Of a stretch of DNA of 64,000 bases, positions 2 through 61,939 are shown piece by piece. The position numbers and the translations under genes are program-made. Every line of letters begins with the position of its first letter. Position 1 is the stretch's first letter. The DNA is taken from NCBI GenBank assembly GCA_030638825.1, contig DAOWDU010000031.1, positions 4,206-68,205 of the forward strand, read 5' to 3'. The notes beneath the pieces were generated by a model, which did not search any database, was not told where the DNA came from, and was given only the letters and a program-made list of their open reading frames with translations. The stretch is from a bacterium. GTDB taxonomy: Bacteria; Patescibacteriota; Minisyncoccia; JAHIHE01; JAGLIN01.

Positions 2-1069
2 TCAGCGCCAAATCCAGGAGAGGCAGACACAGGACAAAGCGTGGAAGTAAATCAATTAAGTTCAGGAACGATTTATCATTTTGCGATGAAAGTGTCAGAT
101 GAAGTTCCAAATGAATCTGGAATTTCAAATGTTGTTTCAGCGACTACTAAAACTCCTCAAAATACTGGCGGCGGCGGAGGTGGAAGTTACACTCCCCCTT
201 CAAGCCAAACGGCTAATAATGTTCCCTTAAAAATCTCATCCTCTCAAAAAGGAACTCTAAACCAAAACCTAAACAAGAAAAATAAAGTAAAACTAGAAGT
301 TCCAAAAGGCAGTATAAAATCTACAACAACTTTTACGGCGAGCGAGGGAAGTTTAGAAGAGGAAAATATTCCAAAAGATAAGATAGGCGCGTTCTTGTTT
401 AATGGATTAGTTTTTAATGTTGAAGCGGTTGATTCAAGCAACAAAGCAGTGAGAGAATTCTCAGAAGATTTGACGATTACTTTAACTGTTCCAGATCTGC
501 CAGATGATACAACAGATTTAGAACTCTATTATTATGACGATGAAAAAGAAGAATGGATAATAATTACAGATATTGAATTTGGCGATGGCACGATTTCGTT
601 CAAAGTAAATCACCTCACGCAGTTTGCGGTTTTTGCAACGAAGACAGGAGAAGTTAAAGGTGAAACTAATGTAAATATTCTTGACGGCGACATTATCCAA
701 TGCAAATCTTCAGAAAACCCATTCGCTGTTTATATTGTTAAAGAAGTCGGCGAGACAAAATATATCAGACATATCGTCAGTTTAGAAATCTTTAACTATT
801 ACGGACATCTCAAATGGGAAAATTTGAAACAAGTTGATTCTCTAGATGGCTATTCTCTCTCTAGCTGGGTAAGAGTGAACACCGGACCAAACGGAACAGC
901 TGGACCAACCGACAAAGTTTATGAAATCAATGGCGATCAAACAAAGCACTGGATCAATATGACCGCGGAAGATTTTCTTTCCCACGGTGGATCTGAACTA
1001 GCGATTTATAGCGTTAATCAGGGAGAATTGGATTTGTATAAAACGGGGGCGGATGTGATGATGCTGTAA
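2..1069 (+). CDS. 3' fragment of a cell-surface protein. It has an Fn3-like terminal domain and a Gly-rich linker.
   Basis: The reading frame is open from the window edge, so the N-terminus is missing. The motif LSSGTIYHFAMKVSDEVPNESG resembles the C-terminal strand pattern of fibronectin type III domains. A poly-Gly linker follows. Confidence 0.45.
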   Translation, partial: SAPNPGEADTGQSVEVNQLSSGTIYHFAMKVSDEVPNESGISNVVSATTKTPQNTGGGGGGSYTPPSSQTANNVPLKISSSQKGTLNQNLNKKNKVKLEVPKGSIKSTTTFTASEGSLEEENIPKDKIGAFLFNGLVFNVEAVDSSNKAVREFSEDLTITLTVPDLPDDTTDLELYYYDDEKEEWIIITDIEFGDGTISFKVNHLTQFAVFATKTGEVKGETNVNILDGDIIQCKSSENPFAVYIVKEVGETKYIRHIVSLEIFNYYGHLKWENLKQVDSLDGYSLSSWVRVNTGPNGTAGPTDKVYEINGDQTKHWINMTAEDFLSHGGSELAIYSVNQGELDLYKTGADVMML

Positions 1070-3554: not shown

Positions 3555-3566
3555 TGTATTATAAAC

Positions 3567-3735
3567 TGTCATTGCGAGGAGCCCGAATGAACGCAGTGAG
3601 TGAAATGGCGACGAAGCAATCCCGTAACTATGCACAGAGAACTACCGACGGTGCCATAGTCTCCGCAGAGCTGTGGCACCGCATCTGCAAATCTTGCATT
3701 CTGGGTTCCACAGCCCTACGGGACTATGGAACCCT
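3567..3735. repeat. A truncated family-A element (left half) fused to a second repeat type (ggttccatagtctccgcagagctgtgg...)
   Basis: It opens with ctgtcattgcgaggagcc...gacgaagcaatcccgtaactatgcac. The second part is shared with 36440-36560. Confidence 0.55.
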
Positions 3736-6126: not shown

Positions 6127-6206
6127 CTGGAGTTCACACTTTAGTGTGTAAATTTTAATTTAAATGAAATAAATTCTTACAGGTTAAAACCTGAACTCCA
6201 GAATTT
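6127..6206. repeat. Palindromic repeat family E (ctggagttcacactttagtgtgtaaa...tacaggttaaaacctgaactccag)
   Basis: Terminal inverted repeats ctggagttca/tgaactccag. A near-identical copy lies at 38035-38115 inside prmC. Confidence 0.7.
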
Positions 6207-7985: not shown

Positions 7986-8576
7986 TTATTTTTCTTTCTT
8001 AACTTCCTCTTTAACATCCTTCTTCACATCTTTTTTAACCTCATCCTTCTTAACACCCTCTTTTAACTTCTTAATCTCAAACTGTTCCAGAAGTTTAATC
8101 GTTGCTCTGGCGTTATTTAATTTACTTTTAGATCCAAGCATTTTTCCTGAAATATCGCTAATTCCAGCCAAACTAACAACTGTTCTAACTGCGCCTCCAG
8201 CTACAATTCCGTTTCCTTTTCGGGCTGGTTTTAGAAGAATTTTTGCGCTACCAAGTTTTCCGTGAACTTCGTAAGGAATGGTATTGCCAGTAAAACTCAA
8301 CTCAATCATATTTTTCTTAGCGTCAGCGTATGATTTTTCCGTAGAAATTTTCATATCTTTTCCTTTGGACACGCCCACTCCTACCTTGCCTCTTTTGTTT
8401 CCAATCACAACAACAGTCCGAAAGCTAAATCTTTTTCCACCTTTAACAACACGCGTCACGCGCGCAATGTCAATCACCTTTTGCTCATATTCTTTCTTCT
8501 CTCTTTCTCTCCGCTTCTTCTTAAAAGGCTTTTTCTTAAATGTCTGCTTTTGATCCGAATTTTCTTGTTTAAACAT
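7986..8576 (-). CDS. rpsE: 30S ribosomal protein S5 with Lys/Glu-rich N- and C-terminal extensions
   Basis: The S5 dsRBD/S5 core (VTRVVKGGKRFSFR...GIVAGGAVR) is present. Confidence 0.9.
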   Translation of the reverse strand: MFKQENSDQKQTFKKKPFKKKRREREKKEYEQKVIDIARVTRVVKGGKRFSFRTVVVIGNKRGKVGVGVSKGKDMKISTEKSYADAKKNMIELSFTGNTIPYEVHGKLGSAKILLKPARKGNGIVAGGAVRTVVSLAGISDISGKMLGSKSKLNNARATIKLLEQFEIKKLKEGVKKDEVKKDVKKDVKEEVKKEK

Positions 8577-9409: not shown

Positions 9410-9436
9410 ATCTATTCTTAAATTTTAATTTATATA

Positions 9437-9577
9437 CTGTCATTGCGAGGAATGAAGTTGAGCGATAGCGAAACGGAATGACGAAGCAATCCCGTAACTA
9501 TGCACGATGAATTTAATCACGAGATTGCTTCGTCGCCATCTCTTCACTACGCTCAATCGGGCTTCTCGCAATGACAG
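9437..9577. mobile_element. Family-A TIR element (about 130-140 bp), MITE-like
   Basis: Termini ctgtcattgcgagga / tc(t/c)cgcaatgacag enclose an internal palindrome gacgaagcaatcccg...cgggattgcttcgtc. Confidence 0.75.
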
Positions 9578-9585
9578 GTAATATT

Positions 9586-10137
9586 TTATTCAGTTGTTCC
9601 CGCCACCTTCTTCCCCACTTTTCTTCTCACCTGTTCCCCAACATATCTAATCCCCTTTCCTTTATACGGCTCTGGTTTCTTCTTGCTTCTAATATCCGCG
9701 GCGATTTGTCCAACTAATTGCTTATCTATACCTGAAATGGTAATCACATTTTTTTCAACTTTTAATTCTATTCCTTCTGGCGCTTCAAAAACAACGGGAT
9801 GGGAAAAACCAAGATTTAAAGTTATATTCTTTCCAGTTTGAGTCGCTTTATGTCCAACTCCGTGAAGTTCCAATTGCTTTTCATATCCTTTCTCAACTCC
9901 TAAAACCATATTAGCAATCAAAGCTCTTGAAAGTCCCCAAAGAGCAAGACTTTTTTTCGTTTCTTTTTTAACAGATAAAATAATTTGATTGTCTCTAATT
10001 TCAACCTGCACATTAAAATCAACCTCAAAATAAAGTTCTCCCTTTGAACCCTTAACAGAAATTCCATTCTTCTTCTCATCAAAAGAAACCGTAATCCCCG
10101 TTGGTATTTCAATTGGTTTTTTTCCTATTTTACTCAT
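9586..10137 (-). CDS. rplF: 50S ribosomal protein L6
   Basis: L6 two-domain sequence and conserved position. Confidence 0.9.
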   Translation of the reverse strand: MSKIGKKPIEIPTGITVSFDEKKNGISVKGSKGELYFEVDFNVQVEIRDNQIILSVKKETKKSLALWGLSRALIANMVLGVEKGYEKQLELHGVGHKATQTGKNITLNLGFSHPVVFEAPEGIELKVEKNVITISGIDKQLVGQIAADIRSKKKPEPYKGKGIRYVGEQVRRKVGKKVAGTTE

Positions 10138-10942: not shown

Positions 10943-11497
10943 TTATTCTATTTTATCCACTATCGGAAATCCTAAAAGTTTTAATAATTTATATCCTTCT
11001 TCGTCCGTCTTCGCCGTTGTTGTGATATTAACTTCAAATCCGATAATATTTTTTATTGTTTCTCTGTTCACTTCTGAAAAAATGAGATGCTCTTTGATGC
11101 CAATATTAAAATTTCCATTTCTGTCAAACGCTTTCTTGCTTAATCCTCTGAAATCTCTAACCTGCGGCAAAGCGATATTAATTAATCTGTCTATAAATTC
11201 ATACATTTTCGCTCCTCTCAAAATCGCTGTCAATCCAACTGGCATTCCTTCTCTGATCTTAAATCCAGCAATCGCTTTTTTCGCTTTTGTGACAACTGGT
11301 TTCTGCCCTAAAATATTTGCCATATCTTCCTCTATTTTCTTGAAATCATCTTTGCTATCTCTCAAAATATTTCCCAAGCCAGCGTTGACAACAACTTTAG
11401 TTATCGCAGGAACAGCCATATTATTTTTATAGCCAAATTCCTTCCTCATCTCAGGAACAACTTCTTTTTTATATTTTTCTTTTAAGCGTGTTGTCAT
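10943..11497 (-). CDS. rplE: 50S ribosomal protein L5
   Basis: L5 core and operon position. Confidence 0.9.
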
Positions 11498-11520
11498 TTT
11501 AAGGTTTTAATATTATTTTA

Positions 11521-11644
11521 CTGTCATTGCGAGGAGCTCCGCAGAGCGACGAAGCAATCCCGCAACTATGTCCAATGAATTTAATCACGGGATTGCTTCG
11601 TCGCCATCTCTTCGCTACGCTCAATCGGGCTTCTCGCAATGACA
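11521..11644. mobile_element. Family-A TIR element copy
   Basis: It starts with ctgtcattgcgaggagc, contains gacgaagcaatcccgcaact...cgggattgcttcgtc, and ends with tctcgcaatgacat. Confidence 0.75.
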
Positions 11645-11670
11645 TTTCGCAATCCTAAATTATATGTCAT

Positions 11671-14660: not shown

Positions 14661-14688
14661 GGTTGTTGTTTAAATTATTTTCTACTAC

Positions 14689-14830
14689 CTGTCATTGCGA
14701 GGAGCCCGATTGAGCATAGCGAAGAGATGGCGACGAAGCAATCCCGTGATTAAATTCATCTTGCATAGTCACGGGATTGCTTCGTCGACATTTCTCTCAC
14801 TTCGTTCGTTCAGCCTCCTCGCAATGACAG
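14689..14830. mobile_element. Family-A TIR element copy, between rpsS and rplV
   Basis: It runs from ctgtcattgcgaggagcc to cctcctcgcaatgacag and includes the internal gacgaagcaatcccgtg...acgggattgcttcgtcg palindrome. Confidence 0.75.
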
Positions 14831-19944: not shown

Positions 19945-20106
19945 CATTTTTTTGATTTTACAAACAAAAAACCGGACATTCAACCAATCACAACCGTTTT
20001 TATCCGATTTATAAATTGGCTAATTCAGTATACTTATTAGCATTTATTACTAGAAATTCTTGTTTTAGAAACCCAGTAATAAGCACTTAAATTAGCGTGA
20101 ATTTTC

Positions 20107-20247
20107 CTGTCATTGCGAGAAGCCCGAATGAGCGTAGCGAAGAGATGGCGACGAAGCAATCCCGTGACTATGCACAAATGGCTTAGTCACAGGATTGCTT
20201 CGTCGGCATTTCTCTCACTTCGTTCGTTTAGCCTCCTCGCAATGACA
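20107..20247. mobile_element. Family-A TIR element copy, between rpsJ and rplC
   Basis: It starts with ctgtcattgcgagaagcc and ends with cctcctcgcaatgaca. Confidence 0.75.
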
Positions 20248-21221: not shown

Positions 21222-22421
21222 TTATTTTATGATCTTCGTCACAACTCCCGCTCCTACTGTTCTGCCGCCTTCTCGGATCGCGAATTTCATACCATCTTCC
21301 ATCGCCACTGACGAAATTAATTTAATTGTTAGTTTTACAGTATCTCCAGGCATAACCATTTCTGTTCCCTCTGGCAAAGCCGCTTCACCAGTTACATCGG
21401 TTGTTCTGATATAAAATTGCGGTTTATAACCTGTGAAAAATGGAGTGTGTCGTCCGCCTTCTTCTTTGGTTAGGATATAAACTTCACCTTCAAATTCGGA
21501 ATGAGGAGTGATAGATCCAGTCGCTGCCAAAACTTGCCCTCTTTCTATTTCTTCTTTTTTAATACCTCTCAACAAAACTCCCGCATTATCTCCCGCTTGC
21601 CCTCTGTCTAACTGTTTGTTGAACATTTCAATTCCAGTGATAACCACTTTTCTAGTATCTTTAATTCCAACTAATTCCACCTCATCATTAAGATTGATAA
21701 TTCCTCTTTCAATTCTTCCAGTCACAACAGTTCCTCTTCCTTCAATTGAAAAAATATCTTCAAGAGGCATCAAAAATGGTTTGTCTACATCTCTCTTCGG
21801 CTCTGGAATTTTTTCATCTAATTTTTTCACTATTTCTAAAACTGGTTTACAAGTTTCACACTCTTCTTTTCCACAACCGCATTCTACAGCCTTAAGAGCA
21901 GAACCTCTCACAATAGCAGTGTTTGCTCCGTCAAATTCGTATTTTGTTAATAGTTCTCTAATTTCCTCCTCAACAAGATCAATTAATTCAGGATCGTCAA
22001 CTTGATCAATTTTATTTATGAAAACAACAATTTCAGGAACACCAACTTGTCTCGCCAATAAAATATGTTCTCTTGTTTGAGGCATAGGACCATCTGTTGC
22101 CGCAACAACTAAAATAGCGCCGTCCATCTGAGCCGCGCCCGTAATCATATTTTTAATATAATCAGCATGTCCAGGACAATCAACATGAGCGTAATGTCTG
22201 TTGTCTGATTCATATTCCTGATGGGAAGTAGCGATTGTAATTCCTCGCTCTTTTTCTTCGGGAGCGTTATCAATATCAGCAACTCCTTTTTTAGAAGCCG
22301 CTTTTCCTGATGCTGCCAAGCACGCCAAAATCGCTGCGGTTAAAGTTGTTTTTCCATGATCAACATGTCCAATTGTTCCGACATTGACATGCGGTTTTGA
22401 TCTGTCAAATAGTTCTGCCAT
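21222..22421 (-). CDS. tuf: Elongation factor Tu
   Basis: The motifs [14 protein letters not shown], and NKID are present. A Cys4 cluster insertion is unusual. Confidence 0.95.
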
Positions 22422-22541: not shown

Positions 22542-22886
22542 TTACAATTTCTCTATCACTATCTCATCGTCATCAATAGTATCGTCACTATCTTTATCTT
22601 CTAAATCATTCTCTTCTCTAAATTTATTCTCAACCTCAAACTGTCTCACCATTCTCTCGCCCTGTTTATTTTTCCAAACATTAATATCTTTATTCACTCC
22701 CTCTACTCTTGCGGGCAATTCTTTTTTGCTGGGATTATTAATAGTCTTATCTTTCGCATCTTCAAAATCAAGATACTCATCAACATTAATAATTACCATC
22801 GTTGGCTTTCCGTCTTCCACAATAATAACTTTGCCTCCAACGATTTTTATTAATTTCTTAATCTTATCAAAACTGTTTTCTGTCAT
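22542..22886 (-). CDS. Hypothetical acidic protein. Its N-terminus weakly resembles the Phd/YefM antitoxin fold.
   Basis: GGKVIIVEDGKPTMVIINVDEY resembles antitoxin beta-strands, but the support is weak. Confidence 0.3.
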   Translation of the reverse strand: MTENSFDKIKKLIKIVGGKVIIVEDGKPTMVIINVDEYLDFEDAKDKTINNPSKKELPARVEGVNKDINVWKNKQGERMVRQFEVENKFREENDLEDKDSDDTIDDDEIVIEKL

Positions 22887-23062: not shown

Positions 23063-23488
23063 TTACAATTTACCCGTACTTCCAAATCCCCCATCCTCTC
23101 GTTCTGTTTTGTTTAAATCTTCCACTTCTTCAATTTCAACTCGTTCTATTTTCTGAATTAAGATCTGCGCTATTTTGGTATTTTTTTCAACTAAATAATC
23201 TTCGTCTCCCAAATTGATTAGAACAATAATTATTTCTCCCCTATAACTTGAGTCAATAACACCAGCCATCGTTTTCATTCCGTGTTTAGTTGCCAAACCG
23301 CTTTTATCCCAGATAAGCCCGACATAACCGCTTGGAATTTCCATTTTTATACCAGTTAAAAATCCTTTTCGTTCTCCTGATTTCAAATTATAACCTTCCT
23401 CCGCTGAATAAATATCAAGTCCTGCGTCGCCTTCGTGCGCATAATTCGGAGTTTTTACTTCTTTAATTTTCTGGATTTTTATTTTCAT
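23063..23488 (-). CDS. dut: dUTP diphosphatase
   Basis: The dUTPase motifs AGLDIY, IPSGYVGLIWDKSGLA, and GVIDSSYRGEI are present. Confidence 0.85.
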   Translation of the reverse strand: MKIKIQKIKEVKTPNYAHEGDAGLDIYSAEEGYNLKSGERKGFLTGIKMEIPSGYVGLIWDKSGLATKHGMKTMAGVIDSSYRGEIIIVLINLGDEDYLVEKNTKIAQILIQKIERVEIEEVEDLNKTEREDGGFGSTGKL

Positions 23489-23498
23489 ACATATAAAT

Positions 23499-23638
23499 TG
23501 TCATTGCGAGGAATGAAGTTGAGCGATAGCGAAACGGAATGACGAAGCAATCCCGTAACTATGTCTAGTGAATTTAATCACGGGATTGCTTCGTCGCCTT
23601 CTCTTCGCTACGCTCATTCGGGCTCCTCGCAATGACAG
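23499..23638. mobile_element. Family-A TIR element copy, between fusA and dut
   Basis: It runs from ttgtcattgcgaggaatgaagttgagcg to ggctcctcgcaatgacag. Confidence 0.75.
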
Positions 23639-23645
23639 TAATAAT

Positions 23646-25721
23646 TTATTTCTTCTCCCTCTCTCCAATAATCCCTTCCGCCACATTCTTTGGAATTTCC
23701 TGATAGTGATCAAATTCCATTGAATAATTTCCACGACCTTGAGTCATAGATCTTAATTGTGTTGCGTAACCGAACATAGAAGAGAGAGGCACTAAAGCGC
23801 TCACGACTTTTGCTTGTCCGCGTTCGCTCATATTTTCAATCTGACCGCGTTTAGAGCTTAGATCACCGACGACATCTCCCATAAATTGTTCAGGGGTTAT
23901 GGTCTCCACTTTCATAATCGGTTCCAGTAAAACAGGCTCTGATTTTTTGAAAGCGTCTTGAAAAGCGAGCGATCCCGCAATCTTGAAAGCGGATTCTGAG
24001 GAGTCAACATCGTGATACGAACCATCATAAAGCGTGACTTTAACATCAACAACGGGATAGCCAGCGATGACGCCTTTCGCCATTGCTTCTTCAACTCCTT
24101 TTTGGGTAGGCTTGATATATTCCTGAGGAACAGCGCCGCCTTTGATTTCGTTCACAAATTCAAATTCGCTTCCGCGTTCCTGCGGTTCAATTCTCAACCA
24201 AACATGCCCATATTGTCCGCGTCCTCCCGATTGGCGGATATATTTTCCTTCCGCCTGCGCCGAGTCTTTGATTGTTTCTCGATACGCTACTCTCGGTTTT
24301 CCAATATTCGCTTCCACTTTCATTTCGCGAACCATTCTGTCTATTAAAACTTCCAAGTGAAGTTCTCCCATTCCTGAAATAATTGTCTGTCCTGTTTCTT
24401 CGTCTGTTCTAATTTGGAAAGTCGGATCTTCGTCAGAAAGTTTTTTGAGAGCCATTCCCATTTTTTCCTGATCCGCTTTTGTCTTTGGTTCAATAGCGAT
24501 AGAAATAACTGGCTCCGGAAAAGTAATCTGCTCTAAAATAATCGGATGTTTTTCATCGCACAAAGTATTTCCTGTTGTTGTATTTTTCAATCCAACCGTT
24601 GCTGCGATATCGCCAGCATAAATCACATCAACATCCTCGCGATGATTAGCATGCATTCTTAAAATCCTCCCAATTCTTTCTTTCTTGCCTGTAATGGAAT
24701 TAAGAACGTAAGAACCAGCTTTTAATGTTCCAGAATAAACTCTAAAAAACGCTAACTGTCCAACAAAAGGATCAGCGGCGATTTTAAAAGCCAAAACCGC
24801 TAACGGTTCTTCGTCATCTGTTTTTCTCGTTACTTCCTCTTCGGTATTTGGATTAATTCCGACAATTGACGGAACATCTAATGGTGAAGGAAGATAATCT
24901 ATCACCGCGTCTAAAACTATTTGGACGCCTTTATTTTTCAAAGCTGTTCCCGTCATTACGGGAAAAATTTTATTCTCCGCAGTCGCTTTTCTAATTCCCT
25001 CTTTTAATTCTTCTTGAGTTATTTCCTCGCTCGCTAAATATTTTTCCATCAACTCGTCATCATTCTCCACAATTTTTTCCACCATTTCGCTTCTCCATTC
25101 TTCAACTTTTTCTTTCATCTCTTCGGGAACATCTTTTTCAACAACCTTCTCTCCATGTTCGCCTTCAAAATAATACGCTTTCTTGCTAACGAGATTTATC
25201 ACTCCTTCAAAATTTTCTTCCGCGCCGATTGGCAACTGAATTGCCACAGCGTTTTTATTGAGACGATCAATAATAGATCGGAAGCTTTTATAAAAATCAG
25301 CGCCCATTCGGTCCATCTTATTGATAAAACAAATTCGCGGCACTTTATATTTATCCGCCTGATGCCAAACAGTTTCGCTCTGTGATTCCACTCCAGCGAC
25401 GCCGTCAAAAACAACAACGCCTCCGTCTAAAACTCGCAAACTTCTTTCCACTTCCGCGGTAAAATCAACATGTCCAGGGGTGTCAATTATATTAATCTGA
25501 TAATCTTTCCAAATACAAGTCGTCGCAGCGGAGGTAATTGTAATCCCTCTTTCCTGTTCCTGTTCCATCCAATCCATCGTCGCTTCACCGTCATGAACTT
25601 CGCCGATTTTATGGCTAATTCCCGTATAAAACAAAATTCGCTCGGTGACTGTTGTCTTCCCGGCGTCTATATGCGCAATAATTCCAATATTGCGGATCTT
25701 TTCTATGGGGTATTTTCTCAT
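23646..25721 (-). CDS. fusA: Elongation factor G
   Basis: The GTPase motifs AHIDAGKTT and DTPGHVDF are present and the length is 691 aa. Confidence 0.95.
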
Positions 25722-25812
25722 AAGAGTTCGTTATAGTTAAAAGTTTGTAAAGTTATAAAGTTATTTTATTTTTGGAGTTCAGGTTTTAACCTGCAAGAAA
25801 TTTCTTTCACTT

Positions 25813-25843
25813 CCCTTATACTAATACAAATCAAAAAAATGTC
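25813..25843 (-). promoter_or_regulatory. Putative sigma70-like promoter for fusA (TTGACA-19-TATAAG on the minus strand)
   Basis: Seen by eye in the reverse complement. The 19-nt spacing is slightly long. Confidence 0.3.
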
Positions 25844-25865
25844 AATCAATTATTCCCGCAAATAA

Positions 25866-25900
25866 TTGACAAGAATGAATTTGTTATTTAGGATGAAAAA
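25866..25900 (+). promoter_or_regulatory. Putative promoter for the small Cys-rich ORF (TTGACA-17-TAGGAT)
   Basis: The -35 hexamer TTGACA lies at 25866-25871, followed by a 17-nt spacer and a TANNNT -10 hexamer. Confidence 0.4.
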
Positions 25901-25930
25901 GCTTTTAAAATTAAAAGTAGGTGTTTATTA

Positions 25931-26107
25931 GTGAAAAATATAAAAGAAGCAGAAGCGATTGGATGCAATGATACCGAGTTGTGCATAAAAGGAAAAGGAT
26001 ATCCAGGAATGGAATCAAAAGGAGAAAATAATATCGGGGAATGGTGCCATAAGGGGAAAAGAAGCTGCGGTTTCTTAGTCTGGAAACGAAATACTTCTAA
26101 AAGATAA
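25931..26107 (+). CDS. Small basic Cys-containing protein (58 aa; GTG start); function unknown
   Basis: An AGGTG RBS lies 7 nt upstream of the GTG. Four Cys fall in two C-x5-C pairs. A terminator hairpin follows. The ORF is below the size cutoff of the ORF track. Confidence 0.4.
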   Translation: MKNIKEAEAIGCNDTELCIKGKGYPGMESKGENNIGEWCHKGKRSCGFLVWKRNTSKR

Positions 26108-26118
26108 ACAAACAGTAT

Positions 26119-26147
26119 GTCAGCTAAACAGAGCTGACTCTTTTTTT
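26119..26147 (+). terminator. Rho-independent terminator (gtcagct-aaacag-agctgac followed by a T-run)
   Basis: A perfect 7-bp stem is followed by TCTTTTTTT. Confidence 0.6.
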
Positions 26148-28440
26148 ATTCCAAAACCGCCTTAATCCTTCTTACACCAGAACTTGAAGACTGCTCTTTT
26201 TTAATTCTAAACTTCCCCAGTTCAGAAGTATTCTTGATATGCGGACCCCCGCAAATTTCTTTACTGAAAATATTATCGCCTTTTCCAATTGTATAAACTT
26301 TCACTTTCTCCCCATATTTATTTTCAAAAACCCCCATCGCGTTTATTTTCTTCGCTTCTTTTAGGCTCATCTCCTCGCAATTTACTGCGAGCTTTTTTTG
26401 AATTTGTTTATTAACTAAATCTTCAACTTTTTGTTTTTCTTCATCCGTCAATTTTTCCGAATGCGAAAAATCAAACCTCAATCTTTCGGCATTGATATTA
26501 CTCCCTTTTTGAAAAATATGATCGCCCAAAACTCGCCGTAAAGATTCTAATAATAGATGCGCTACAGTGTGTAATTTAACTGTCTCTTCTCCTGTATCCG
26601 CTAATCCTCCTTTGAATTTTCCAGCGGAAGCGGTGCGAGAGAGTTGTTGGTGTTTTTTAAGTTCTTCATTAAATCCTTCTTCATCAACGGACCATCCTTT
26701 TTCTTTAGTTAATTCTTCTATCATTTCAATTGGAAAACCATAGCTTTGATATAAATTAAAAACGGTTTTTCCATTTACTGTAATACTCTTTAATGCCATC
26801 TTTGATTTACTTTTAATAAAATCAACAAATTTATCGTCTGTTTTTATTTCTGAATGATCTTGTTTATTTATTGGCACTATTGGACTAATTTTTGATTTTA
26901 AATTTATATCGTAATATTTAAAAATTTCCTTAAGAGAATCTGTAATTACTAAATACTGCTCTATAGAATATCTAAATTCTAATAAATGCATATTTTCTTT
27001 AGATGGGTTTCTCAATAAAAATTCTATATTTTTAATATCTTCTTCAATATCATTAAATATTTTTAGTCCTCTTTTTAATGCTTTAACAAATCTTTCTTCT
27101 TCTTTTACCATCTCTTCTTGAATTAATTCGTTATTCTCTTTTAGTGTAGGATATCTATCTTTATAAATATCTATTATTTCTTTCGCAATTAAAAAAGTAA
27201 AATGAGATTCTTTTATTTTAATCATTTTAGCATAGCGAATCGCCCGCCTAATTAAACGCCTTAGAACATAACCTCTTTCAAGATTAGACGGTATTACTCC
27301 ATCAGAAATCATAAACACAGATGTTCTTATATGATCGGCTATTATCCTAAAAGCTTTTGGATTATTTTCGTAATTAGTCCCGCTATTTAAAAATTCTTCT
27401 TCTGTTTCGGAAGGCTTTAGTGTTAATCTTTCAATTTTTTCTATAATCGGCGCCAACACATCCGTTTCATAAACATTATCAAACCCATTCAAAACTGCTA
27501 AGGTCCTCTCCAGCCCCATCCCCGTATCAACATTCTTGTTTGGTAAACTTTCTAATATTTTTATATTATTACCTAAAAATTCATATTTTTCCCTCTCTTC
27601 GTCCTCAAAAAAATCGTATTCTCTTTTTGGCAACTCTATAATTTTTCCTGTTGATTTTTCTTTCAACTCTACAATTCTTAATCCTTTCTTATCCATAAAA
27701 ACATTGTTCCAAATTTCAACATATCTTCCACAACTACATCCTGGTTTACAATTACTATTACTTGGACATTTTTCAAAATTTACTGGCTTTTCTAAATCAA
27801 TAAAAATTTCCGTATCTGATCCACAAGCTCCTTCATCTCCTGCAGGACCCCACCAATTATCTTTTTTCGGCAAAGGAAAAATTCTCGCGGTTTCATTATT
27901 CTTTTTTTGTTTATCATAAACTTCAACAGAAATTCCTGATTTTTCAAAACACTTTTGCCAAACTTTAATTGACTCTTTATCTCTTGGCGCGTCATTATCT
28001 CCCTCAAAAACCGTCACTTTTATTTTTTCCGGATCAATCCCTAGCCATTTTTTATCCGTCAAAAACTCCCAGCTCCATTTAATTGAATCTTCTTTGAAAT
28101 AATCTCCCAGCGACCAATTGCCCAGCATTTCAAAAAAAGTATTATGCGTGCTATCGCCGACATCGTCTATATCTCCTGTCCTCACGCATTTTTGAATATT
28201 AACAATTCGTTTCCCCGCTGGATGATTTTCGCCCATTAAATATGGCACCAACGGATGCATTCCCGCAGTCGTAAAAAGAACAGTTGAATCATTCTCTGGC
28301 ACCAACGAAGCCGAAGGAATTTCTTTGTGTCCTTTTGATTTAAAAAACTCTATATATTTTTCGCGTAGTTCTTTAGAAATCATAAATTGGATTATTTTCT
28401 CATAAAAAGACATTATAGCAAATTCTTTGAATTTAATCAA
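26146..28440 (-). CDS. alaS: Alanyl-tRNA synthetase (short form lacking the C-Ala domain)
   Basis: The class II AlaRS motifs FTTAGMHPLVPY and the editing-domain region are present. The length is 764 aa. Confidence 0.9.
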   Translation of the reverse strand: MIKFKEFAIMSFYEKIIQFMISKELREKYIEFFKSKGHKEIPSASLVPENDSTVLFTTAGMHPLVPYLMGENHPAGKRIVNIQKCVRTGDIDDVGDSTHNTFFEMLGNWSLGDYFKEDSIKWSWEFLTDKKWLGIDPEKIKVTVFEGDNDAPRDKESIKVWQKCFEKSGISVEVYDKQKKNNETARIFPLPKKDNWWGPAGDEGACGSDTEIFIDLEKPVNFEKCPSNSNCKPGCSCGRYVEIWNNVFMDKKGLRIVELKEKSTGKIIELPKREYDFFEDEEREKYEFLGNNIKILESLPNKNVDTGMGLERTLAVLNGFDNVYETDVLAPIIEKIERLTLKPSETEEEFLNSGTNYENNPKAFRIIADHIRTSVFMISDGVIPSNLERGYVLRRLIRRAIRYAKMIKIKESHFTFLIAKEIIDIYKDRYPTLKENNELIQEEMVKEEERFVKALKRGLKIFNDIEEDIKNIEFLLRNPSKENMHLLEFRYSIEQYLVITDSLKEIFKYYDINLKSKISPIVPINKQDHSEIKTDDKFVDFIKSKSKMALKSITVNGKTVFNLYQSYGFPIEMIEELTKEKGWSVDEEGFNEELKKHQQLSRTASAGKFKGGLADTGEETVKLHTVAHLLLESLRRVLGDHIFQKGSNINAERLRFDFSHSEKLTDEEKQKVEDLVNKQIQKKLAVNCEEMSLKEAKKINAMGVFENKYGEKVKVYTIGKGDNIFSKEICGGPHIKNTSELGKFRIKKEQSSSSGVRRIKAVLE

Positions 28441-31000: not shown

Positions 31001-31140
31001 CTGTCATTTTTCACTGTCATTGCGAGGAAGCCTGAGCGAGCGTAGCGAGCGAGATGGCGACGAAGCAATCCCAGTATTAAATTCCTCGTGCATAGTTACG
31101 GGATTGCTTCGTCGCTCTGCGGAGCTCCTCGCAATGACAT
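31001..31140. mobile_element. Family-A TIR element copy, between atpH and atpA
   Basis: It runs from ctgtcatttttcactgtcattgcgaggaagcc to gagctcctcgcaatgacat. Confidence 0.75.
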
Positions 31141-37658: not shown

Positions 37659-38672
37659 ATGAATGTTCAACAAGCTCTCAAAGCTTCCGCTAATAAATTG
37701 AAATTACAAAACATCTCCTCTTTCGTTCTTGATGTAGAAGTTTTATTGTTGGAAGCGTTGAATAGAAATAACAACGCCCCTCACCCCAGCCCTCTCCCGC
37801 GGGGAGAGGGAGCTAAAAATAAAAGTTGGTTGTATTTGAATAATGAATATATTTTAAATAAAAAAGAAGAAGAATTATTTAATGATTTTATAAAGCAGAG
37901 GTTAGAAAATAAACCAGTTGCTTATATCATCAATAAAAAAGAATTTTACGGGTATGACTTTTATGTTGATAAAAATGTTTTAATCCCCCGCCCCGAAACG
38001 GAATTAATGATTGAAGAAGTTTTGAAAATTTTATCTGGAGTTCACACTTTAGTGTGTAAAAATTCAGACACAAATAAAATAAATTCCTACAGGTTAAAAC
38101 CTGAACTCCAGAATTTTAATTTAATAGACATCGGCACAGGATCAGGATGTATCATTATAAGTATTTTAAATGAATTAACAAAAAATAAAATTAATAAAAT
38201 TATTTACAACGCTTACGCAAACGATATTTCTTTAGAAGCGATTAATGTAGCAAAAATAAATGCGAAAAAATATAATCTAAATAAAAAAATAAGATTTATT
38301 AAAGATGATTTTGAAAAGTTTTTAGATAAAGAAGATATTTATACTTCTGATAAAATTATTATCACCGCCAATTTGCCCTACATAAAAAATGGCGACTATA
38401 AAAATCTTTCTGAAAATGTAAGAAAATACGAACCTAAAATCGCGCTCACAGCGGGAAAAAACGGCTTAGATTATATAGGAAAATTAATTAATTTAATATC
38501 TAAAAAACAACTAAAATCAAATCAGAAAATATACTTATTTCTTGAAGCCGATCCAGATCAGATGAGTGAAATAACGGCTATTTTAAGGGAAAGGTTAGCT
38601 AATGTAGATGTTGAAATTATTAGAGATTTGAGTGGTAAAGAAAGGATTGTTAAATTATTATTTGGAAATTAA
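37659..38672 (+). CDS. prmC: HemK/PrmC-family protein-(glutamine-N5) methyltransferase, carrying two in-frame palindromic-repeat insertions
   Basis: The motifs IDIGTGSG (motif I) and NLPY (an NPPY variant) are present. Inserts lie at 37779-37812 and 38035-38115. Confidence 0.7.
   Translation: MNVQQALKASANKLKLQNISSFVLDVEVLLLEALNRNNNAPHPSPLPRGEGAKNKSWLYLNNEYILNKKEEELFNDFIKQRLENKPVAYIINKKEFYGYDFYVDKNVLIPRPETELMIEEVLKILSGVHTLVCKNSDTNKINSYRLKPELQNFNLIDIGTGSGCIIISILNELTKNKINKIIYNAYANDISLEAINVAKINAKKYNLNKKIRFIKDDFEKFLDKEDIYTSDKIIITANLPYIKNGDYKNLSENVRKYEPKIALTAGKNGLDYIGKLINLISKKQLKSNQKIYLFLEADPDQMSEITAILRERLANVDVEIIRDLSGKERIVKLLFGN
38035..38115. repeat. Family-E palindromic element inserted in-frame within prmC
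   Basis: It is near-identical to 6127-6206 and encodes SGVHTLVCKNSDTNKINSYRLKPELQNFN. Confidence 0.7.
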
Positions 38673-53771: not shown

Positions 53772-55574
53772 TTATTGCGCTATTGCCCAAAAAGTCAATT
53801 GCGCCGATTTTGCGCCATTTCCATCTGAGTAGCCAGCGGGAATAGAAAGTTCTACGGCTACATTTTGATTGCCATCTTGAGCAATATCAGTTTCAAAATT
53901 TTTCCAGGACACGCTATTCAAATCTAAATTTTCGGTAAAGAGGGAATCTCCGCTAACTAAAGCCTCTATGTGTATATCAGAAGTTCCATTGTTATTAAGC
54001 GTAATATTTTTGGTAGCAGAAGATCCAGAATTTAAATTACCAAAATCAAGATTGCTTGTATCAACAACAAAAGAAATTGTATCTTCGTTAGTGCTATCTC
54101 CTTCAACATCTCCATTTTCTATAGTTACGGTCAAATCAACGGAAGAACTTGCCCCCTGCCCAACTTTTAATAAAATAGAATTACTTCTAACATATCCTTC
54201 TTTTTGCGCGTGAATTTTATAAAATCCGTCCTGCAAAGAAATGCCCACTTGTCCGTTAGTATTAGTAGTAATCGTATCCACGCCAAAATAAACAGAAGCG
54301 CCAACAAGAGGAGACCAAGAATTATCACTGAAAAATTCCACCGTAGCTGTAACGGATTGATTGGCATCTGCTTGCTCAGCTGATAAAACTAATCTTGTCG
54401 GCTGCCAGTCAAAACCGCCGTAATACCATAAAACAGAATCGCCAGTTTGCATTTCATAATCCGCCGCTCCCACAAAAAGAGATATATTATTAATTAAATA
54501 CAGCCAACCTAATTCTCCTTTTGCTTCGTCGTTATTAATTCTTTTTAGGTAAGGACCCCAGTCAGTATCTTTAACTTCATAAGTAAAATCGCAAATACTT
54601 TTTGCGTTTTTGACAATATCCAAAGCAGTTGGTCCAGTTACTTCACCTAAACAAATTGTTTCCTCTAATCCCTCAATACGAAAAGGAAATTTTTGGGCAA
54701 GGGCATCATTTTCCACAATATTAAGAGGAAGTTTTTTACCCTGTAGAGCGATAACCGCGTAAGCCGTGGTCATTGCCGAAAAAGAATCTTCTCCAGAGGA
54801 ACTATTTTGATATTTAAAAAAGCCTTGCTCACTTTGATTTAATTCAAGATATGAAATGGGAGTGTTGTCGGATTTGATCAAACCGCTTGGATCAATATCC
54901 AAAGCGTTAAGCGCCCAAATTACCCATGCCGTGGATGAAGAATCGGAATTAGAATCGGAATAATAAGGAAAACCGCCATCGTTATTTTGTGATGTTTGCA
55001 AAAAAGATAGGGCGTTTTGAATGCGAGAATCAGAGTTGTCAATTCCAGCAGATACAAGCGCTAAAATAGCGGCCGCAGTCATATTCGTATCAGAATTAGC
55101 TGTTACAGAAAAACCCCATCCGCCATCATCGTTTTGATGAGAAAAAATAAAGTTTTTTGAATCAACAATAATCACATCATCAAGAGATTCACCAGCGGAG
55201 ATAAGAGCCAAAATTCCAAAACAGTCATCATTAAGCATCGTAATATCTCCTATCTGATTTTCAGTATAATAGCTTTTAAGCGCGGCGACATAATCAGTTG
55301 ACGAAAAAACACGCGGATTTTCTCCTATAGCCGTTATCGCTAGAATTGGCGCGGCGTGATCAATGGCGTTTGTTCCATTGATAGAAATAAGATGATCTAT
55401 GGGAATAGAAGAATTTCCAAGCGCAGACAAAGCCATTGTGCTCCACGGATTAGCGCTATTTGCGGTTAAATAGTCCTGCGCGCTATTTGTGTTATAGGTT
55501 GCGTTTATTTCTGAAGAAGGAAACATGGAAAACAACAACACAACAATTAACATTACGGATAATAACTTTTTCAT
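53772..55574 (-). CDS. Secreted protein with prenyltransferase/terpenoid-cyclase-like repeats and a carboxypeptidase-regulatory-like domain
   Basis: It has a signal peptide. The repeats QNDDGGW and NDGGFPY are present. Confidence 0.45.
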   Translation of the reverse strand: MKKLLSVMLIVVLLFSMFPSSEINATYNTNSAQDYLTANSANPWSTMALSALGNSSIPIDHLISINGTNAIDHAAPILAITAIGENPRVFSSTDYVAALKSYYTENQIGDITMLNDDCFGILALISAGESLDDVIIVDSKNFIFSHQNDDGGWGFSVTANSDTNMTAAAILALVSAGIDNSDSRIQNALSFLQTSQNNDGGFPYYSDSNSDSSSTAWVIWALNALDIDPSGLIKSDNTPISYLELNQSEQGFFKYQNSSSGEDSFSAMTTAYAVIALQGKKLPLNIVENDALAQKFPFRIEGLEETICLGEVTGPTALDIVKNAKSICDFTYEVKDTDWGPYLKRINNDEAKGELGWLYLINNISLFVGAADYEMQTGDSVLWYYGGFDWQPTRLVLSAEQADANQSVTATVEFFSDNSWSPLVGASVYFGVDTITTNTNGQVGISLQDGFYKIHAQKEGYVRSNSILLKVGQGASSSVDLTVTIENGDVEGDSTNEDTISFVVDTSNLDFGNLNSGSSATKNITLNNNGTSDIHIEALVSGDSLFTENLDLNSVSWKNFETDIAQDGNQNVAVELSIPAGYSDGNGAKSAQLTFWAIAQ

Positions 55575-59077: not shown

Positions 59078-60328
59078 TTATCCATTGAGATTAACTGGAT
59101 TCCCGCCTCCGCGGGAATGACAGAAAACAAGCTTCTTTATTTTCTCTCTAAAAACATCCTCTGAAAACTTCTCCGCCTGTTTCTTAATTTTTTCAGCATC
59201 ATAGTTATTATAATTATTTTTCATTCTCCTCACGCCGTCCGCTAAGATTTCGGGGATTGGATCGTCAAAAAATTCTCCTGTTTTTCCTTCAATTACTGTT
59301 TCTAAAACGCCTCCTTTTCTATACGCCAAAACTGGTTTGCCAAAAGACATTGCTTCAATTGGCGTTATTCCAAAATCATCTTCTCCCGGAAAAATAAACG
59401 CGTAACAATTTTCATAATATTGCGCGAGTTTTTCTTCTGGTTGAAATCCAAGAAATTTAATGTTCTTATTCGCTATTTTCTCAAGTCTTTTTTTATCTTC
59501 GCCCTCCCCAATGATCACAAGCGGCAATTCCAGTTTATTAAACGCTTCAATCGCAATATCTATTTTTTTATAAGGACTAAGACGAGAGACTACCAGGAAA
59601 TAACTATTATTATCTGTCATTGCGAGAAAGCCCGATTGAGCGTAGCGAAGAGAAGGCGACGAAGCAATCCCATGATTAAATTCATCGCGCGTAGTTGCGG
59701 GATTGCTTCGTCGCTCTGCGGAGCTCCTCGCAATGACAGTGTTCGTCGGCGGATAAATCACTTCACTCTCTCTTCCATAAAACTTCTTAATCCTCTTCGC
59801 GGTATGCTCTGAATTGGCGATGAAATAATCAACTCGCTCTGAAGCTGATTTGTCCCACATTCTTAAATAATGTAAAAACGGCAAAATAATTATTTTTTTA
59901 ATTCCGTTGATTTTATTTTCCTCAAGATAATTATAATACCAATCCCAAAGAAATCTGGTCGGAGTGTGGCAATAGCAAATGTGAACCGCTTTTGGTTTGG
60001 TAATTACTCCTTTCACAAATGAACTTGAAATGGAAATAACAACATCAAAATCCCTCAAATCAAAAGTCTCCGCCGCAGTCGGCATAAATGGCAATAGATA
60101 CTTTTTTCGCTTTTTTATAAACTTAGGCAACCTATTTAAAAACGAACTTCTTATTTTCGCACCAGGAAAATACTTCTTCATTTTTTTCTCATCATACAAC
60201 AAAGTATAAATCGGCGCGTCTGGATATAATTTATGCAACGACATCAAAACCCTTTCGGCTCCACCGAAGTAAGTTAAAAAGTCGTGAACAATCGCTATTT
60301 TTGGTTTTTGGGATGAGGGGGTTGACAT
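59078..60328 (-). CDS. GT4-family glycosyltransferase with an in-frame family-A repeat insertion
   Basis: The GT4 N- and C-domain sequences (EX7E region, GEFFDDP) are present. The insert lies at 59614-59739 in the interdomain linker. Confidence 0.7.
   Translation of the reverse strand: MSTPSSQKPKIAIVHDFLTYFGGAERVLMSLHKLYPDAPIYTLLYDEKKMKKYFPGAKIRSSFLNRLPKFIKKRKKYLLPFMPTAAETFDLRDFDVVISISSSFVKGVITKPKAVHICYCHTPTRFLWDWYYNYLEENKINGIKKIIILPFLHYLRMWDKSASERVDYFIANSEHTAKRIKKFYGRESEVIYPPTNTVIARSSAERRSNPATTRDEFNHGIASSPSLRYAQSGFLAMTDNNSYFLVVSRLSPYKKIDIAIEAFNKLELPLVIIGEGEDKKRLEKIANKNIKFLGFQPEEKLAQYYENCYAFIFPGEDDFGITPIEAMSFGKPVLAYRKGGVLETVIEGKTGEFFDDPIPEILADGVRRMKNNYNNYDAEKIKKQAEKFSEDVFREKIKKLVFCHSRGGGNPVNLNG
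59614..59739. mobile_element. Family-A TIR element inserted in-frame in the GT4 gene
   Basis: It runs from ctgtcattgcgagaaagcc through gacgaagcaatcccatg...cgggattgcttcgtc to gagctcctcgcaatgacag. It encodes about 42 aa without a stop. Confidence 0.75.
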
Positions 60329-61778: not shown

Positions 61779-61796
61779 TTTAGTTGGAATTAAAGA

Positions 61797-61939
61797 TTGT
61801 CATTGCGAGGAGCCTGAGTGAGCGTAGCGAACGAGAAGGCGACGAAGCAATCCCGCAACTATGCACAACGAATTTAATCACGGGATTGCTTCGTCGCCAT
61901 TTCACTCACTGCGTTCGTTCAGGCTTCTCGCAATGACAG
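61797..61939. mobile_element. Family-A TIR element copy, between GT4 and mreB
   Basis: It runs from ttgtcattgcgaggagcc to gcttctcgcaatgacag. Confidence 0.75.

Follow-up and report, generated by a model that had tools for sequence, protein, structure and literature searches.

Archaeal one-domain zinc-finger micro-proteins, such as the C(P)XCG micro-proteins HVO_2753 and HVO_0758 of Haloferax volcanii and Brz of Halobacterium salinarum, are soluble proteins of less than 70 aa that carry four cysteines in two pairs (PMC11241148, PMC10716476, PMC6562870, PMC2253796). Their genes often stand alone between other genes, the proteins are presumed to bind partners, and the cysteines lie in two CxxC-type C(P)XCG knuckles. 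Five of the 14 Haloferax C(P)XCG micro-proteins that have been tested are zinc-free, and AlphaFold2 is reported to be unreliable for metal geometry (PMC11241148).

Rubredoxins (PF00301) are proteins of ~52–54 aa with four cysteines, an aromatic-rich mini-core, and the knuckles C-x2-C-G and C-P-x-C-G. They are found in anaerobes, and ~30 residues separate their two cysteine pairs. The Cys4 zinc-ribbon ribosomal proteins (bL36, bL33, bL32, bL31, and Z-type bS14) are also small and encoded near translation genes; they are often basic, and they are universal or widespread. Finally, the precursors of SCIFF/ranthipeptides and sactipeptides are short, cysteine-containing ribosomal products. To our knowledge, they always adjoin a radical-SAM maturase and consist of a leader followed by a C-terminal core that is rich in cysteine.

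The window analyzed here is a 64,000-nucleotide stretch of contig DAOWDU010000031.1 from a Candidate Phyla Radiation (CPR) genome. Between fusA and alaS it contains a small gene for a 58-aa protein, which belongs with three homologues to a family hereinafter designated the Cys4 family. In its presumed way of working, the protein is most like the archaeal one-domain zinc-finger micro-proteins or a rubredoxin-sized Cys4 protein, and it is a member of neither. As in the archaeal micro-proteins, a short and soluble protein with its four cysteines in two pairs is encoded by a stand-alone intergenic gene and is presumed to bind a partner. Unlike theirs, the pairs of the Cys4 family are spaced C-x5-C and C-x5-7-C, with glycine after the second pair only. 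The family has no sequence similarity to the archaeal micro-proteins, and its host is a CPR bacterium. Specifically, all four members are shorter than 70 aa, and none has the two C(P)XCG motifs that define the archaeal class.

The other systems are further away. The Cys4 family resembles rubredoxin in size, in its four cysteines and putative aromatic-rich mini-core, and in a similarly placed W-x-C...C-G arrangement at the second pair. However, its cysteine spacings are not those of the rubredoxin knuckles, only 21 residues separate the two pairs of the small protein, and no member matches PF00301 at E ≤ 10; rubredoxin membership was therefore rejected. No profile of the zinc-ribbon ribosomal proteins matches the Cys4 family; moreover, a basic charge is not kept in the family, and the family is known from four closely related lineages only. 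Unlike the SCIFF/ranthipeptide precursors, the small gene has no adjoining maturase and its product has no leader-core split.

A small gene between fusA and alaS

The 58-aa translation quoted in the original prediction for a GTG-initiated ORF matches the DNA exactly. Of its two neighbors, both identified by Pfam, fusA points away from the ORF and alaS points toward it (Table 1). The ORF had been called unannotated; in fact, GenBank already has an identical protein under the name 'hypothetical protein KAQ87_00900 [Candidatus Pacebacteria bacterium]'. Along 6.2 kb, this region of the window matches JAGLOM010000010.1 at 100% identity; the latter belongs to the Candidatus Pacebacteria metagenome-assembled genome (MAG) GCA_023138945.1. 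The samples behind this MAG come from a cold seep of the South China Sea, Site-F (PMC9357000). Among 2000 shuffles of the 424-nt intergenic region, 324 (16%) yield an ORF of 58 codons or more, indicating that its length by itself does not set the ORF apart from chance.

The neighbors within ~10 kb are all housekeeping genes, namely fusA, dut, tuf, L3, alaS, and the ATP synthase operon (atpBEFHAGD). In the classical str operon, rpsL-rpsG precede fusA. In the window, fusA has no rpsL-rpsG ahead of it, and a dUTPase gene and an ORF of 114 aa, for which Pfam gave no match, lie between fusA and tuf. Translation of alaS probably begins a few codons downstream of the TTG that opens the ORF, because its relatives align only from residue 19 onwards. 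In the gene calls of the GenBank contig L001 (3216–4181, equivalent to 26146–27111 of the window), alaS is only 321 aa long, and no gene is called across the ~1.5 kb beyond it; the identical DNA of the window is an uninterrupted 764-codon ORF. The 321-aa call is probably a gene-calling artefact.

Table 1. Positions of the small gene, its signals, its neighbors, and other elements of the window
Feature	Position	Strand	Details
Four-cysteine small protein, CDS	25931..26107	+	58 aa, GTG start, TAA stop; from ORF and homologues
Small-gene promoter	25866..25894	+	TTGACA-17-nt spacer-TAGGAT, sigma-70-type, 10/12 consensus positions
Shine-Dalgarno sequence	25919..25923	+	AGGTG, 7 nt before GTG
Intrinsic terminator	26119..26147	+	7-bp stem GTCAGCT/AGCTGAC, 6-nt loop, T-run
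fusA-directed promoter	25818..25845	-	TTGACA-16-nt spacer-TAGTAT, back-to-back with small-gene promoter
25-nt block ACAAATCAAAAAAATGTCAATCAAT	25826..25850		identical in all four lineages
fusA	23646..25721	-	EF-G, 691 aa, divergent neighbor; Pfam
alaS	26146..28440	-	AlaRS, convergent neighbor; Pfam
dUTPase gene	23063-23488		between fusA and tuf
114-aa ORF	22542-22886		between fusA and tuf
tuf	21222-22421	-	
Palindromic repeats	3558-3641, 9414-9591, 11482-11659, 14688-14829, 20106-20247, 23475-23652, 31051-31139, 59606-59755, 61789-61938		
20-mer CAGGTTAAAACCTGAACTCC	6180-6199	+	
20-mer CAGGTTAAAACCTGAACTCC	25774-25793	-	
20-mer CAGGTTAAAACCTGAACTCC	38090-38109	+	
Cobalamin riboswitch RF00174	55683-55852	-	33.2 bits, gathering score 31.5
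Promoter upstream of riboswitch	55895-55867		TTGACA-17-TAGAAT
600-aa ORF downstream of riboswitch	53772-55574		

Conservation of the reading frame

Homologues were searched with exhaustive phmmer (HMMER) against 1.84 billion representatives. The search found two true homologues, P0002 (58 aa, E = 1.8e-22) and P0004 (52 aa, E = 2e-6), and a profile search found one further homologue, P0006. Two other phmmer matches (P0003 and P0005) are spurious, since they are long tandem-repeat proteins that match via short low-complexity stretches. The three homologues are 52–58 aa long with 47–70% identity, and all come from short marine metagenome contigs. On these contigs (L083/L084, L085, and L086), the gene is always convergent with the 3' end of alaS, which is 74–96% identical over the portions present, and in L085 and L086 fusA is divergent upstream of it. 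A promoter, a Shine-Dalgarno sequence, and a hairpin terminator were found at all homologue loci.

The four coding sequences are ~69% identical in DNA, and their starts, stops, and frame are aligned. Indels among them are of 3, 6, and 12 nt only, all in frame. The four Cys codons are retained and alternate between TGC and TGT. The dN/dS ratio is 0.13–0.43 across the four sequences; the ratio in the antisense frame that shares wobble positions is similar, so dN/dS alone cannot decide the strand. Instead, the plus strand is indicated by the conservative nature of the sense replacements (mean BLOSUM62 of -0.65 to +1.4, versus -1.1 to -1.6 in antisense), by a stop in the antisense frame of L086, by inconsistent antisense ORF extents (35, 47, 61, and 51 codons, with differing starts), and by the plus orientation of the Shine-Dalgarno sequence, promoter, and T-run. 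More generally, the other five frames have stops or inconsistent ORF extents.

The small ORF is therefore very probably a translated gene, and it is conservation across four lineages, not ORF length, that argues for this. Loss of the reading frame in related genomes was the outcome that the original prediction had set against itself; the frame, start, and stop are kept in four diverged lineages and under purifying selection, as is characteristic of coding genes. The prediction of a separate transcription unit also holds at the level of sequence, with Shine-Dalgarno sequence, promoter, and terminator conserved along with the frame. Predicted tryptic peptides of the 58-aa protein include NIKEAEAIGCNDTELCIK and SCGFLVWK.

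Expression signals of the locus

The promoter, the AGGTG Shine-Dalgarno sequence ahead of GTG, and the perfect 7-bp-stem terminator had each been described in the original prediction, and each is present. Specifically, the stem-loop of the terminator occupies 26119–26138 and is followed by TCTTTTTTT. The transcription start site is predicted to be near 25901, which would give a transcript of ~245 nt. The −35 element of the small gene is invariant in the four loci, while the −10 element is TAGGAT, TAAGAT, or TAGTAT, always within TAnnAT. In the window, TTGACA-N16-18-TANNNT occurs 14 times versus 2.3 expected (6-fold enriched), and copies precede genes (e.g., tuf and atpB) and also the cobalamin riboswitch. 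This promoter motif is informative in this genome. The combination of AGGTG and GTG is found in the window and L083, and that of AAGGAG and ATG in L085 and L086.

The terminator hairpin has a folding energy of -10.6 kcal/mol (z = -2.9). A 7-bp stem, a 6-nt loop, and a T-run are found in all four loci, and the stem sequences differ between them, indicating that the structure of the terminator is conserved rather than its sequence. The hairpin lies 8 nt past the stop of alaS on the other strand and is also flagged as a terminator on the minus strand. Therefore, it probably terminates both convergent genes, the small gene and alaS.

The small-gene promoter stands back-to-back with a promoter directed at fusA. 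The −35 element and the entire spacer of the latter are 100% conserved in the four loci, and its −10 element is TAGTAT, TATACT, or TACAAT. The ACAAATCAAAAAAATGTCAATCAAT block comprises this −35 element and spacer, and it is the most conserved DNA of the locus. Because of its A-richness and its position at −40 to −60 relative to the small gene, the block may double as an A-tract UP-like element for the small-gene promoter. The gap between the two −35 boxes is 16, 20, 20, and 23 bp in the four loci; an operator spanning both boxes is unlikely, as their spacing differs. In L085, a 1.1 kb insert with two small ORFs separates fusA from the promoter block and leaves the block attached to the small gene. 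The inserted ORFs (540–1004, minus strand) encode 88 aa and 55 aa, with no Pfam hit on record.

Features of the Cys4 family

The residues invariant in the four members are E6, A7, A9, G11, C12, C18, G21, P25, N33, I35, G36, W38, C39, R44, C46, G47, F48, L49, and W51. The cysteines form the motifs G-C-x5-C and W-C-x5-7-C-G-F-L-[IV]-W. The original prediction described two C-x5-C pairs in a repeated G.C.....C.KGK unit. This is right for the spacing of the first pair (C12 and C18), while the second pair (C39 and C46) is C-x6-C in the window protein; KGK follows the first pair and lies inside the second, so there is no such repeat. The peptide had also been described as basic, which is true of the window protein (pI 9.2) and does not extend to the family (pI 8.8, 6.1, and 5.2 for the others).

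The family proteins are hydrophilic (GRAVY -0.46 to -0.96), and none has a signal peptide or hydrophobic segment. Conservation extends over the full length of the peptide, with no split into leader and core. Comparison of the four members with Pfam, NCBIfam, PHROGs, and PADLOC at E ≤ 10 gave only a sub-threshold L7Ae match of P0002. There was no sequence-profile match and no fold match in the PDB, and no match to zinc-finger or rubredoxin profiles. Two AlphaFold2 runs gave models of low confidence (pLDDT 52.5 and 47.9), and in both models short beta-strands flank each Cys pair. The family is an orphan of a well-known type: its members are small, rich in cysteine, and presumably metal-binding.

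Proposed function and alternative explanations

In the explanation that we consider best, with a probability of roughly 0.6, the locus would be a monocistronic gene for a lineage-restricted Cys4 metal-binding mini-protein. The product would be a soluble cytoplasmic protein of 52–58 aa. Transcription would start from the near-consensus sigma-70-type promoter, back-to-back with the fusA promoter, and would stop at the hairpin and T-run just past the convergent alaS stop. Translation would use the Shine-Dalgarno sequence and the GTG start (ATG in two relatives). At the protein level, the four invariant cysteines would be placed on two beta-hairpins and jointly bind one metal ion, most likely Zn2+ and possibly Fe, while a small core, or alternatively a binding face, would be made up of Trp38, Phe48, and Trp51; we put this structural picture at about even odds. 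The mini-domain would exert its effect through another macromolecule to which it binds; the nature of this partner is speculative.

Three functions had been offered for the peptide in the original prediction. Among these, a small metal-binding protein is favored, because all four cysteines are kept in every member and the protein lacks both a signal peptide and a hydrophobic segment. A secreted peptide and a toxin-like peptide find no support, because the proteins are hydrophilic, have no signal or leader, and are not accompanied by a partner gene or, within ~10 kb, by modification or export genes. The spacing of the cysteines counts against a metal site, since x5 and x5-7 differ from the CxxC or C(P)XCG of known knuckles and ribbons.

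This unusual spacing bears on an alternative in which the small protein is real and its cysteines are redox-active or purely structural, for example in a thiol switch or in an adaptor with a Trp/Phe face. Besides being non-canonical for zinc knuckles, the cysteines have a precedent in the zinc-free Haloferax C(P)XCG micro-proteins (5/14; PMC11241148), and the invariant aromatics suggest a binding surface. However, there is no thioredoxin-like CxxC motif, and where a cytoplasmic protein of 52 aa from an anaerobe keeps all four cysteines unchanged, together with the G-C and C-G around them, a tetrahedral metal site is the simplest reading. We regard redox-active or structural cysteines as possible but rather unlikely.

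As to the partner, the fixed position of the gene beside fusA and alaS and the shared promoter block, taken on their own, suggest a relation to translation, which is speculative. In its most ambitious form, this suggestion would make the protein the first of a new class of metal-binding Cys4 mini-domain with widened knuckles (C-x5-C / C-x5-7-C-G), a lineage-specific translation accessory factor in one clade of Pacebacteria that binds the ribosome, EF-G, or AlaRS and is co-regulated with fusA via the 25-nt block. We consider so specific a role improbable.

It is also improbable that the gene encodes the precursor of a modified or disulfide-bonded secreted peptide, i.e., a bacteriocin or a sactipeptide/ranthipeptide-like or toxin-like product. 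The protein is short and Cys-containing, it has a strong promoter of its own, and its very narrow taxonomic range is typical of accessory peptides. However, the family has neither a signal peptide nor a double-glycine leader nor a hydrophobic segment, and its conservation covers the entire peptide instead of marking off a leader from a core. Neither is the locus equipped for such a peptide: no gene within ~10 kb codes for a radical-SAM enzyme, a protease, an ABC exporter, or immunity, hence no adjacent maturation or export genes of the kind that accompany precursors of ribosomally made modified peptides (RiPPs). The members gave no PADLOC or PHROGs match and are absent from phage and plasmid records.

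That the ORF is incidental and the transcript works as RNA, be it small and non-coding, regulatory, or in an antisense or leader role for fusA or alaS, is very improbable. A stand-alone intergenic transcription unit of ~245 nt whose ORF is not significant by length, whose promoter block is better conserved than the ORF, and whose wobble-sharing antisense frame resembles the sense frame in dN/dS would fit such an RNA. Against this, a comparison with Rfam 15 gave no match at E ≤ 10 on 25000–27000 and, with the whole window scanned at the gathering score, none in the region, and a tRNA/tmRNA scan found none. The fold of the predicted transcript has z = -0.6, single-sequence folds of both strands are no better than those of shuffles, and RNAalifold on the four loci gives weak, scattered pairs, so that no convincing conserved RNA structure was found there except the terminator. 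The predicted transcript stays clear of the fusA mRNA and touches only the last few nucleotides of alaS. A non-coding RNA does not account for the in-frame indels, for the start, Shine-Dalgarno sequence, and stop retained in 4/4 lineages, or for invariant codons for four Cys and two Trp with synonymous TGC/TGT changes.

Finally, the small protein might have diverged from part of a YbxF-like RNA-binding protein of the L7Ae/L30e family, the gene for which lies upstream of rpsL-rpsG-fusA in Bacillus. This is highly improbable: the sub-threshold match of P0002 (residues 17–53 against PF01248 Ribosomal_L7Ae, E = 0.042, 14 bits, cutoff 22.1) is not found in the other three members and was rejected by profile-profile comparison (hhalign of the family against an L7Ae alignment, probability 0.1%, E = 0.52), and the small protein spans only half of the length of the L7Ae fold.

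Distribution of the Cys4 family

Among ~15 billion proteins, the Cys4 family was found in four lineages, all metagenomic. The peptide profile found no match on JGI metagenome contigs or among the viral contigs of IMG/VR, and neither did tblastn against phage and plasmid records. We also collected alaS loci of more distant relatives (80 GTDB-representative and 80 JGI loci) and searched them by tblastn, by hmmsearch on six-frame translations, and by nhmmer. No further copy was found within several kb of alaS in these 160 loci, the closest AlaRS among which has 71% identity. Specifically, the syntenic locus L004 (alaS 63% identity, fusA downstream) has a 457-nt intergenic region without the ORF, and in L003 and L087 (alaS 71%) other genes lie downstream of alaS. 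On these comparisons, the only carriers of the family are uncultured Pacebacteria from a very restricted group, and the Cys4 gene is a recent, clade-specific occupant of the slot downstream of alaS.

A promoter and leader like those of the small gene were detected in L017 (AlaRS 63%) at the same position convergent with alaS (8285–8366, minus strand; nhmmer E = 7.5e-5). There, they drive an unrelated ORF of 99 aa (7996–8295, minus strand), which is acidic and Cys-free, so the slot houses differing small genes by lineage.

The locus thus provides an ORF of less than 60 aa in a CPR genome that is very probably a genuine gene under selection, with no described family and with unusually clear expression signals (promoter, Shine-Dalgarno sequence, and a terminator that alaS probably shares). 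Since the genomes of CPR bacteria are tiny, an orphan gene that is strongly promoted and has been kept beside fusA and alaS is probably useful to its host. With it, the little-explored small proteome of bacteria gains one more member. The finding is sound but ordinary: the family is narrow, the four cysteines are its sole clue to function, and the protein was already a GenBank 'hypothetical protein', so it will hold no surprise for the specialist.

Other elements in the window

The window also contains families of dispersed intergenic repeats of ~90–180 nt, which are internally palindromic, have 62–94% identity, and share the core GTCATTGCGAGGAGC...GCGACGAAGCAATCCC...GGGATTGCTTCGTCGC. They look like MITE- or REP-like elements. 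One copy is located directly 3' of fusA. Sequence resembling the repeat is translated within the alaS ORFs of L004 and L017 ('CHCEGEAR.NPV').

The 20-mer CAGGTTAAAACCTGAACTCC, in which a 4-bp hairpin is followed by AACTCC, has three exact copies in the window versus 0 expected. One of these is in the 5' leader of fusA, 52 nt upstream of the ATG. The corresponding copy in the fusA leader of L085 is CAGGATAAATCCTGAACTCC, with a compensatory change in the extended stem.

The cobalamin riboswitch of the window scores just above its gathering threshold (Table 1). A TTGACA-17-TAGAAT promoter lies directly upstream of it, and a 600-aa ORF lies downstream.
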